Shown here: piece by piece, positions 1-3,000 of the stretch
How the letters are laid out: every line of letters begins with the position of its first letter
Position numbering within the stretch: the stretch's first letter is position 1
Source: a virus
Lineage: Duplodnaviria > Heunggongvirae > Uroviricota > Caudoviricetes
DNA: 6,595 nt
Reading direction: 5' to 3' (one strand)
Virus record (IMG/VR): IMGVR_UViG_2537562194_000037
Coordinates: 1-6,595 of that record
Position numbers: made by a program

Positions 1-3000
1 ATGAATATGATGGCCGTGCCGTTTCACGGCAACTCTCTTTATGTAGTTAACCATAATGGCGAACCATACGTTCCCATGAAACCTGTCGTTGCGGGGATGG
101 GGCTGGCCTGGCAATCACAGTTGGCTAAGTTAAGACAGCGTTTTGCGTCAACTATAACGGAAATCGTTATGGTTGCTGAGGATGGGAAACAACGCAATAT
201 GGTGTCCATGCCACTTCGAAAACTTGCCGGCTGGCTACAAACCATTAATCCCAACAAAGTAAAACCCGAAATCCGCGATAAGGTCATCCGGTATCAGGAA
301 GAGTGCGACGATGTTCTTTACGAGTACTGGACGAAGGGTTTTGTCGTTAATCCCCGTAAAATGAGCGTGATGGAAGAACTCAACCAGGCTTGTGCTGACA
401 TGAAACGGGATAAAAACATTGCCAGTGTGTTTGCTACCGGGCTGAATGAGTGGAAACAGGTTAAAGCCGCGCATGTATCAAAAATCCGTACGCTGGTAAA
501 TGAAGCGAATATGCTGATTGATTTTGTCCTGGCTGATACAGGCAAAGGGAAAATAACAAAGGCGGATTGATGGGGTGTGGGGAAATCTGCGTTTTGTGGA
601 AGCCAGTGGCCGGGCCAGCAATGATGCAGAAGGGTATCTGGAATGTTTCGGGAAAAAATGGAAAACTGCATCTGGCTCAGGGGCTGTGGGAGCTGATAGA
701 CAACAGCCAGCTTGCGGATGAGATGGCGGAGATGAAGACCACCATCACCGAAACCCGCAATGAAATCACACAGACGGTCAGTAAAACGCTGGAAGACCAG
801 AGCGCCACCATTCAGCAGATACAGCGCGTGCAGAAGGACACAAATGATGACCTGGCTGCGCTGTACATGCTGAAGGTTACAAAAACGAAAGACGGCATTC
901 CCTATGTGGCCGGGATTGGTGCAGGGATTGAGGATACTGATGGCCAGCCACTGAGCAACATACTGCTGCTGGCTGACCGTATCGCGATGATAAATCCGGA
1001 GAGCGGCAACAGCACGCCGTTATTTGTGGCGCAGGGGAATCAGCTGTTCATGAACGACGTGTTCCTGAAACGACTGTTTGCGGTGAGCATCACGTCATCC
1101 GGCAATCCTCCGGCATTTTCCCTGACGCCGGACGGGCGACTGACGGCGAAAAATGCGGATATCAGTGGCAGTGTGAATGCGAACTCAGGGACGCTCAACA
1201 ACGTCACGATTAATGAGAACTGTCAGATTAAGGGGAAACTGTCAGCCAACCAGATTGAAGGCGATATTGTCAAAACGGTCAGCAAGTCTTTCCCCCGCAC
1301 GAGCACTTATGCCAGTGGCACCATCACGGTAAGAATCAGTGATGATCAGAAGTTTGACCGGCAGGTCATGATACCGCCAGTGTTATTCCGCGGTGGTAAG
1401 CATGAGAATTTCAACAGTAATAACCAACAGTCATACTGGTATTCAACCTGCCGGTTAAGAGTGACCCGCAATGGTCAGGAGATTTTTAATCAGTCCACGA
1501 CGGATGTTCAGGGCGTATTTTCCTCAGTTATAGATATGCCTGCCGGACAGGGGACGCTGACACTGACATTCACCGTATCTTCATCAGGAGCGAATAACTG
1601 GACACCAACAACCAGTATCAGCGATCTGCTGGTTGTGGTGATGAAAAAATCCACAGCAGGTATCAGTATCAGCTGAATTTTATAACCCATATACGGGCGC
1701 CAGAAATGGCGCCTTTTTTATTGCAGAAAAGCGAGAGGTAATTATGCGTAAACTTTATGCCGCCATTTTGTCCGCAGCCATCTGTCTGGCCGTATCCGGT
1801 GCGCCTGCATGGGCGTCTGAACATCAGTCCACGCTGAGCGCGGGGTATCTTCATGTCTCGACGAACGTTCCTGGCAGCGATGAACTGAACGGGATTAACG
1901 TGAAATACCGTTATGAGTTTACGGACACACTGGGAATGGTGACGTCATTCAGCTATGCAGGAGACAGGAATCGCCAGCTGACCCGTTACAGCGATACCCG
2001 CTGGCATGAAGATTCCGTGCGTAACCGCTGGTTCAGCGTGATGGCGGGGCCGTCTGTGCGCGTGAATGAATGGTTCAGCGCGTATGCGATGGCGGGTGTG
2101 TCTTACAGCCGTGTGTCGACTTTCTCCGGAGATTATCTGCAGGTGACCGACAACAAGGGGAAAACGCATGATGTGCTGACCGGAAGTGATGACGGTCGCC
2201 ACAGCAACACGTCTCTGGCGTGGGGAGCTGGCGTGCAGTTTAACCCGACCGAATCCGTGGCCATTGATATTGCTTATGAAGGCTCCGGCAGTGGCGACTG
2301 GCGCACTGACGGTTTCATCGTGGGTGTCGGTTATAAGTTCTGATTAGCCAGGTAACACAGTGTTATGACAGCCCGCCGGTTCAGGCGGGCTTTTTTGTGG
2401 GGTGAATATGGCAGTAAAGATTTCAGGTGTACTGAAAGACGGCACAGGAAAACCGGTAGAGAACTGCACCATTCAACTGAAAGCCAGACGGACCAGCAGC
2501 ACGGTGGTGGTGAACACGGTGGCCTCTGAAAATCCGGATGAAGCCGGTCGTTACAGCATGGACGTTGAGTACGGTCAGTACAGAGTCATTCTGTTGGTGG
2601 AAGGATTCCCGCCGTCACATGCCGGGACCATCACCGTGTATGAAGATTCTCAACCCGGTACGCTGAATGATTTTCTCGGTGCCATGTCGGAGGATGACGT
2701 CCGGCCGGAGGCACTGCGCCGTTTTGAACTGATGGTGGAAGAGGTGGCGCGTCACGCTGAGGAGGCGAAGAAGAATGCCGGAGAGGCGGAGACGTCAGCG
2801 AGGAATGCCGGCATATCAGCCAGTCAGGCAGAAGAGAGCGCGGCAAATGCTGACACTTCAGCAGGGGAGGCATCGGAGTCAGCCCGGCAGGCGGCAGAAA
2901 GTGCAGCCGCTGCAAAGCAGTCAGAGGAGGCGTCCTCGTCCTCGGCTTCTGCGGCCGCTCAAAAAGCCAGTGAGTCATCACAAAGTGCAGCAGAAGCTGA

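Follow-up and report, generated by a model that had tools for sequence, protein, structure and literature searches.

Genes present in the window

The window, by which we mean the whole stretch of 6,595 nt analysed here, corresponds to nt 12-6606 of AEZV02000082.1 (assembly GCA_000194355.2), a contig of the JCVI draft of the O111:H- strain JB1-95 (PMC3359367) that starts 11 nt before the ATG of its first gene. This gene, ant (1-570, plus strand), is intact, encodes a 189-aa Ant-like protein and corresponds to the allele found in the lysis cassettes of Stx phages. It is followed on the same strand by J′ (577-1676), the 3′ remnant of a tail-tip gene J, which comprises codons 793-1158 of a 1158-codon J and retains the fibre shaft and the C-terminal receptor-binding domain. 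A terminator-like hairpin and then a T-run (1695-1714, plus strand) come after J′. A scan of positions 1-2450 for sigma-70-like promoter sites found none.

The remainder of the window contains the right arm of a prophage. The first gene of this arm is lom (1744-2343, plus strand), which encodes an Ail/Lom outer-membrane protein (Pfam Ail_Lom, 6.6e-119); the order J-lom is likewise found in intact prophages, where lom is the normal right-hand neighbour of J. The next two genes, both on the plus strand, are stf (2408-3523), which encodes the side tail fibre, and a short fibre C-terminal gene (3525-3794); they are delineated by gene calls and by the Pfam domains phage_tail_N, Collagen and Phage_fiber_C present across 2408-3794. 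These are followed by the gene for the type III secretion system (T3SS) effector Ibe (3935-4810, plus strand; phrog_6583 Ibe, 3.7e-206), by nleG7 (5035-5685, minus strand; Pfam T3SS_NleG) and by a dinI-like gene (6281-6523, minus strand; Pfam DinI). In relatives, this cargo block (3935-6523) is located at the right end of the prophage and adjoins a truncated copy of the host gene ydfJ.

The ant gene and its native site

The product of ORF 1-570 matched Pfam family P22_AR_N (PF10547; E=1.4e-45, aa 5-113) and contained a second Pfam domain, ORF11CD3 (aa 122-164); phrog_524, "anti-repressor Ant", matched it at 2.4e-112. In agreement with the original prediction, the 189-aa ORF therefore carries an antirepressor N-terminal domain, and it is Ant-like and not derived from J. 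On the basis of its domains we regard ant as a putative antirepressor-like gene of the P22_AR_N type. It has the N-terminal domain in common with Ant, the antirepressor of the immI region of phage P22, but differs from it in its length of 189 aa, in the presence of ORF11CD3, in its lysis-cassette position and in its neighbours. No second P22 Ant domain was detected when the 189-aa protein was scanned against Pfam, which returned only the two domains mentioned. Instead of the arc/mnt context of a P22-type immI region, the neighbours of ant in intact phages are R and the 48-aa ORF/Rz.

Phages 933W, VT2-Sakai and VT1-Sakai (Sp15), as well as numerous further Stx phages, have ant and its 3′ flank in a form that is 100% identical to positions 1-577. 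This segment is carried by 669 of the 5426 complete E. coli genomes, and it is also present in 258 phage records, mostly of Stx-converting phages. The native site of ant is the lysis cassette, in which the genes have the order S, R, ant, 48-aa ORF, Rz (933W, VT1-Sakai and the prophage of O111 strain RM9322), ant being located directly after the endolysin gene R in all three; the 933W record describes ant with the words "possible regulation of host cell lysis". In the RM9322 prophage, tail genes L and K are moreover separated by an arc/arc/ant cassette. The expectation that antirepressor genes are confined to the immunity or early region consequently fails for lambdoid prophages of EHEC, and the presence of ant beside tail genes is not in itself unusual, because Ant-like genes are normal both in the lysis cassette and in the L-K arc/ant cassette. 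The idea that ant had been placed inside the tail-tip gene, in the space where J would continue, did not hold either: ant is at its normal lysis-cassette place, after R.

The region shares with the lysis cassettes of 933W, VT2-Sakai and VT1-Sakai the same ant and the same stop/start overlap with a small downstream ORF, and the upstream neighbours of ant in these cassettes, namely the DUF6645 gene and the genes for holin and lysozyme, are also found in the relatives of the window. It differs from them in that everything from codon 3 of the 48-aa ORF onwards (Rz/Rz1, bor, terminase) is missing.

J′ is the last third of J

In the window, one frame is open between 567/570 and 1676; an in-frame TGA stop at 534-536 closes it upstream. 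The 368-aa product of ORF 570-1676 matched the Pfam domains Phage_Tail_Tip (8.8e-24) and Ig_GpJ_C (8.2e-37). Aligned to the 1163-position NCBIfam profile lambda_TipJ, it spans positions 818-1163 with a score of 519 bits versus a family cut-off of 1950, and it matches residues 821-1131 of lambda gpJ in the PDB at 1.3e-90. The stop at 534-536 and the presence of about the last third of J had both been foreseen correctly. The receptor-binding part of J′ is nearly identical to that of PDB entry 9wca ("A8 gpJ 713"), a 428-aa fragment.

Alignment with intact J genes located the start of the homology. At the DNA level, intact J genes match the window at ~99% from nt 577, which corresponds to codon 793 of 1158 (O103 strain 12009 and O145 strain RM9154) and is in another frame than ATG570. 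At the protein level, homology begins at aa 29 of the 368-aa product, which is J residue 819, and identity to residues 819-1158 of the J protein of O103 12009 is 99%. The first ~28-30 codons of ORF 570-1676 are hence out-of-frame sequence and not J. Thus, of the view that 570-1676 constitutes the J frame, the part from aa 29 onwards was upheld and the first ~28-30 codons were not; as described below, the continuity between the two depends on three indels private to the window.

By its Phage_Tail_Tip and Ig_GpJ_C domains, and by having lom and stf downstream as usual, J′ resembles the tail-tip protein gene J of lambda and EHEC phages (lambda_TipJ; PDB 8iyk, 8xcj and 9wca). It contains the C-terminal receptor-binding Ig-like domain and the central fibre. 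It differs in the absence of the N-terminal 792 codons, and with them of the full length of ~1130-1160 aa and of the hub domains that close the tail tube. Nor does it occupy the site of J in the morphogenesis operon, after H-M-L-K-I: no tail genes are ahead of it, and lysozyme and ant precede it. Judging from the offsets of the PDB matches and from the order of domains described in PMC11101478, J′ would correspond roughly to lambda residues 767-1132. The breakpoint would then fall after residue 713, where the lambda fragment gpJ713 starts, and before the shaft helices at 841-861, so that the beta-prism fibre and the receptor-binding domain are probably retained. For the gpJ713 fragment (residues 713-1132), solubility and binding to LamB in vitro have been shown (PMC11101478). 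Since gpJ713 has these properties and the receptor-binding part of 9wca is nearly identical to that of J′, a folded J′ product is conceivable.

The ant/J′ junction and the TGATG overlap

Three-way alignments and the parental sequences placed the junction at position 577, where the two sides have a single base (G) in common: the BLAST match on the ant side stops at 577 and that on the J side starts at 577. The join is a blunt, illegitimate one. In intact prophages the same two points are far apart. In RM9322, ~21.9 kb separate the ant-side breakpoint from J codon 793; in VT1-Sakai it is ~19.6 kb, IS629 included, a value estimated from the codon position because the J allele of VT1-Sakai differs and the breakpoint cannot be located in it by pattern.

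As predicted, the TGA stop of ant (568-570) overlaps an ATG (570-572), giving TGATG at 568-572. In intact phages, however, this ATG is the start of a 48-aa hydrophobic ORF located immediately after ant, MGWLMISDKLITLVKSLCVLVGISFLVMLVAIFFSTAWRVLTLSGLVG, as seen in the sequence and translation of 933W. In O111 RM9322 the RefSeq CDS for this ORF (WP_000539792.1) likewise has the final base of the ant stop codon as its first base. Comparison with 933W and WP_000539792.1 shows that what is left of the ORF in the window is a stump (ATG GGG TG, 570-577, plus strand): it was severed in its third codon, 7 nt past the ant stop.

The frame that starts at ATG570 ends after 17 codons in the finished genomes 95NR1 and 95JB1 and in the IMG/VR contig L005, which contain the same junction (see below). 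In eight of the nine junction-bearing sequences it does not lead into J, the ninth being the window. The J′ frame in the finished genomes and in L005 is instead the frame of ant itself, two codons past the ant stop; it is open over 366 codons in all of them, and it has no conserved start codon of its own. Hence, ant and J′ show the stop/start overlap of a coupled pair, but the ORF that the overlap opens in the relatives is not the J′ frame. This comparison indicates that TGATG was inherited from the pair formed by ant and the 48-aa ORF and was not created by the ant/J junction. It is a genuine translational-coupling architecture, though one belonging to ant and a now-deleted gene. The proposal that the overlap argues for an organised ant/J′ junction is not supported, because ATG570 belongs to the deleted 48-aa ORF.

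Differences private to the draft contig

The window differs from 95NR1 at 9 positions over 6595 nt, and 7 of these differences are clustered within 591-880: an additional G at 591, the loss of one base near 639-640, GC>AA at 642-643, the loss of an A near 659-660, and CA>AC at 879-880. The three indels (+G at 591, -1 near 640 and -A near 660) are missing from finished genome 95JB1 and from the seven other junction-bearing sequences, and it is through them that ATG570 becomes connected to the J frame in the window. The gene call for J′ on the source contig itself starts later, at window position 606, and an exact look-up of the 368-aa product found it not to be on record.

Strains JB1-95 and 95JB1 are apparently one and the same, as suggested by their names and by the O111:H- serotype of JB1-95, which matches that of the O111-typed genomes carrying the junction; for 95JB1, the record mentions no more than Adelaide and a fecal sample. 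Among 2996 copies of this J segment from 750 complete genomes, not one had the private changes, the best copy being 97.8% identical. Gene conversion from another J copy was rejected as their source, all 2996 copies being without them. Judging from the assembled sequences, the three indels are most likely consensus errors of the draft, near a contig end in multi-copy repeats; alternatively, they may reflect real further decay of a pseudogene. Either origin speaks against a maintained, coupled ant/J′ gene.

Distribution and genomic context of the junction

The identical junction was found in 7 of the 5426 complete genomes (95NR1, 95JB1, 8B, 8E, TW05614, SF4-1 and FWSEC0005). A serotype is on record for five of these seven, and in each case it is O111. 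The IMG/VR contig L005 is a further sequence with the same junction; exact 30-mers spanning the junction had no match in metagenome contigs or in GTDB species-representative genomes. Mis-assembly has to be considered here, i.e. that ant and J′ are adjacent only in a chimeric draft contig joining two multi-copy prophage repeats. The window is located right at the beginning of a draft contig, and both genes are multi-copy in EHEC (per genome, a median of 5 places for ant and of 3-4 for J). This explanation, to which we assign practically no probability, is refuted by the same junction being present in one IMG/VR contig and in seven genomes that were finished independently.

In 95NR1 the genes to the left of the junction have the order Q, methylase gene, tRNA, DUF6645 gene, holin gene, lysozyme gene and ant; J′ is followed on the right by lom, stf, the fibre C-terminal gene, ibe (a 291-aa gene), nleG7, the dinI-like gene and truncated ydfJ. 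According to the annotation, the 95NR1 element contains no Rz, terminase, portal, capsid, tail, integrase or repressor genes, and that of 95JB1 no Rz, terminase, portal, capsid or tail genes. In RefSeq, J′ is a pseudogene in both strains ("incomplete; missing N-terminus"). The element thus has the make-up of a defective lambdoid prophage: the genes for particle formation are gone, and the cargo and the right end at truncated ydfJ are kept. This bears out the suggestion of a defective prophage with a disrupted J. No intact J is present upstream of J′ in the finished genomes. A sequencing frameshift in an intact J was rejected on the same grounds, what lies upstream being lysozyme and ant and nothing of J. 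In O145 RM9154, the prophage at ydfJ looks intact: its right arm is the same, and its J is full-length.

The 95NR1 element has yciI as its left and ydfJ as its right host flank, two genes that are far apart in K-12. This implies that the element has been rearranged further, and it makes a second explanation possible, namely that the junction is an illegitimate join between two prophages, by inversion or translocation, J′ still being a pseudogene. Besides the flanks, which are not adjacent in K-12, this explanation would account for the left arm matching VT1-Sakai coordinate for coordinate and for the right arm matching the O145 ydfJ prophage, whose lysis cassette has no ant. Lambdoid prophages are mosaic, however, so arms resembling different relatives are to be expected, and prophages do exist in which ant follows R and J is complete (VT1-Sakai and RM9322). 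Moreover, the reciprocal junction, consisting of the J codons up to 792 and the rest of the 48-aa ORF, was searched for in the 5426 genomes with a 194-nt chimeric query, and no record covered it. We therefore consider a join between two prophages unlikely, and a single deletion of ~20 kb the simplest account.

Contig L005 is near-identical to the others from -100 to +700 relative to the junction, and its flanks are diverged on both sides. Its receptor-binding part shows ~30% nucleotide divergence. The occurrence of the junction within diverged flanks, together with the divergent receptor-binding part, indicates that this segment recombines with other prophages, and that the J′ portion does so with other J genes. 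Such recombination is expected in the EHEC prophage pool (PMC2669165).

Discussion

What the region preserves is very probably the scar left when a single illegitimate deletion took ~20-22 kb out of a lambda-like prophage at ydfJ, in a lineage of O111 EHEC. The late region of the parental prophage would have had the order that is usual among EHEC lambdoid prophages, namely Q, S, R, ant, 48-aa ORF, Rz, terminase, head, tail, J, lom, stf and effector cargo. A deletion extending from codon 3 of the 48-aa ORF to codon 793 of J would have removed the lysis gene Rz and the terminase, head and tail genes, and would have left ant intact. J′ would simply have been carried along with the retained cargo (lom, ibe and nleG7). 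It would be J′ that the deletion brought beside ant, ant itself having stayed at its normal place.

We infer that J′ is a pseudogene without function, since it has no start, lacks the hub domains and has no tail genes that could use it. The opposite view is that J′ is a functional, free-standing fibre or receptor-binding gene, co-transcribed and coupled with ant, whose product would be a soluble decoy against superinfection or a part supplied in trans. This view can draw on the 366 open codons of J′ in nine sequences, on the late genes S, R and ant directly upstream of it, on the solubility and LamB binding in vitro of gpJ713 (PMC11101478), and on the fact that a near-identical receptor-binding domain was solved as the 428-aa fragment 9wca. 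Yet the ATG that would provide the coupling is the start of another gene and is out of the J′ frame in eight of the nine sequences. The finished genomes are near-identical, so their open J′ frame gives no signal of selection, and the diverged receptor-binding domain of L005 is explained by recombination with intact J genes. In addition, the junction is present in only 7 of the 5426 complete genomes, all those with a recorded serotype being O111, the J hub domains required for anchoring to a tail are gone, and the element contains no tail genes. We consider a functional J′ of this kind very improbable, and the suggestion of a mosaic in which a C-terminal J module is expressed separately found no support.

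J′ as a deletion relic may still be expressed from the late transcript. There is a slim chance that it is made from that transcript and acts as a soluble decoy protecting the lysogen, or that it is maintained as a donor cassette for host-range swaps among co-resident lambdoid prophages. The exchange of receptor-binding sequence observed in L005 shows that such a segment does recombine.

The region represents ordinary prophage decay, of a class that is well documented in EHEC. According to Asadulghani et al. 2009 (PMC2669165), most lambdoid prophages of strain Sakai are defective, the lesions being frameshifts at one extreme and deletions and IS insertions at the other. The element described here resembles those prophages in its large morphogenesis deletion and retained effector cargo, and differs from them in its particular ant/J(793) junction, which occurs in a subset of O111 genomes. 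We found no paper describing this junction; RefSeq already marks J′ as partial.

The finding adds one more EHEC case in which cargo (lom and the T3SS effectors Ibe and NleG7) has outlasted the phage machinery, and it has little biological weight. It also carries two cautions: an apparently organised pair of overlapping genes can be the relic of another, deleted gene, and a draft contig can show, close to its end, a long ORF that rests on consensus errors.

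The 48-aa ORF and the breakpoint

The lysis cassettes of Stx phages contain a conserved and strongly hydrophobic 48-aa ORF, which is placed between ant and Rz and whose start codon overlaps the stop codon of ant. This ORF (WP_000539792.1, a 'hypothetical protein' in RefSeq) is located at positions 3570-3716 of the 933W locus (L002) and 2070-2216 of comparison locus L007, and a stump of it is retained at window 570-577. Its position suggests a putative part in lysis. The J-side breakpoint (window 574-582; 5996-6004 in comparison locus L003) falls within the sequence CCTG|GTGG, a 7/8 match to the Chi octamer GCTGGTGG, and a similar G-rich run, TGGGGTGG, is present on the ant side.

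Context of the junction in L005 and 95NR1

The ant-J' junction of the window was also found on IMG/VR contig IMGVR_UViG_2660238209_000010 (L005), analyzed over its whole 4274 nt. The two sequences are near-identical from about -100 to +700 (window coordinates). Because L005 diverges by ~10-20% on the lysozyme side and by ~30% in the receptor-binding part of J', its scar sits in a different mosaic background.

The flanks of the remnant prophage in 95NR1, a finished genome with the same junction, were examined on L001 1-7900 and 26656-27939. The left flank consists of oppF-cls-kch-yciI and the right flank is a truncated ydfJ, loci that are widely separated in K-12. At the left end of the remnant a small recombinase-family gene is present, and integrase, repressor and replication genes are absent. 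Together, the distant host flanks and these gene losses point to further deletions or one large rearrangement in 95NR1.

Genes retained to the right of the junction

The J receptor-binding region of PDB entries 9wca and 9wcb ('A8 gpJ 713') is almost identical to that encoded by window 1150-1676; no paper describing these entries or their receptor was found in the literature searched. Terminator-like hairpins with T-runs lie on each side of lom (window 1695-1714 and 2370-2391), an arrangement consistent with lom as a moron that has its own expression. The stf gene (window 2408-3523) encodes a low-complexity Ala/Glu/Ser-rich stretch and collagen-like Gly-X-Y repeats; its 371-aa product is 66 aa shorter than the counterpart alleles of O103 and O145 (437 aa). 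The Phage_fiber_C domain is encoded twice in succession at window 3300-3794: the first copy is C-terminal in Stf (aa 299-362) and the second belongs to the short ORF that follows. Next, RefSeq annotates a pseudogene fragment of 67 nt as 'tail assembly protein'. The 291-aa ORF (window 3935-4810) had no match in Pfam or NCBIfam; it matched PHROG 6583 ('T3SS secreted effector Ibe') over the full length. It adjoins nleG7 (window 5035-5955, minus strand), for which start calls vary (216, 278 or 306 aa).

Antirepressor genes in tail modules

A second cassette, resembling P22 immI, is located inside the tail module of O111 strain RM9322, between L and K (L010 34734-36328). It is composed of two Arc-family genes and one antirepressor N-terminal-domain gene that carries a frameshift. 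It is therefore normal for EHEC lambdoid prophages to have antirepressor genes in their tail regions.
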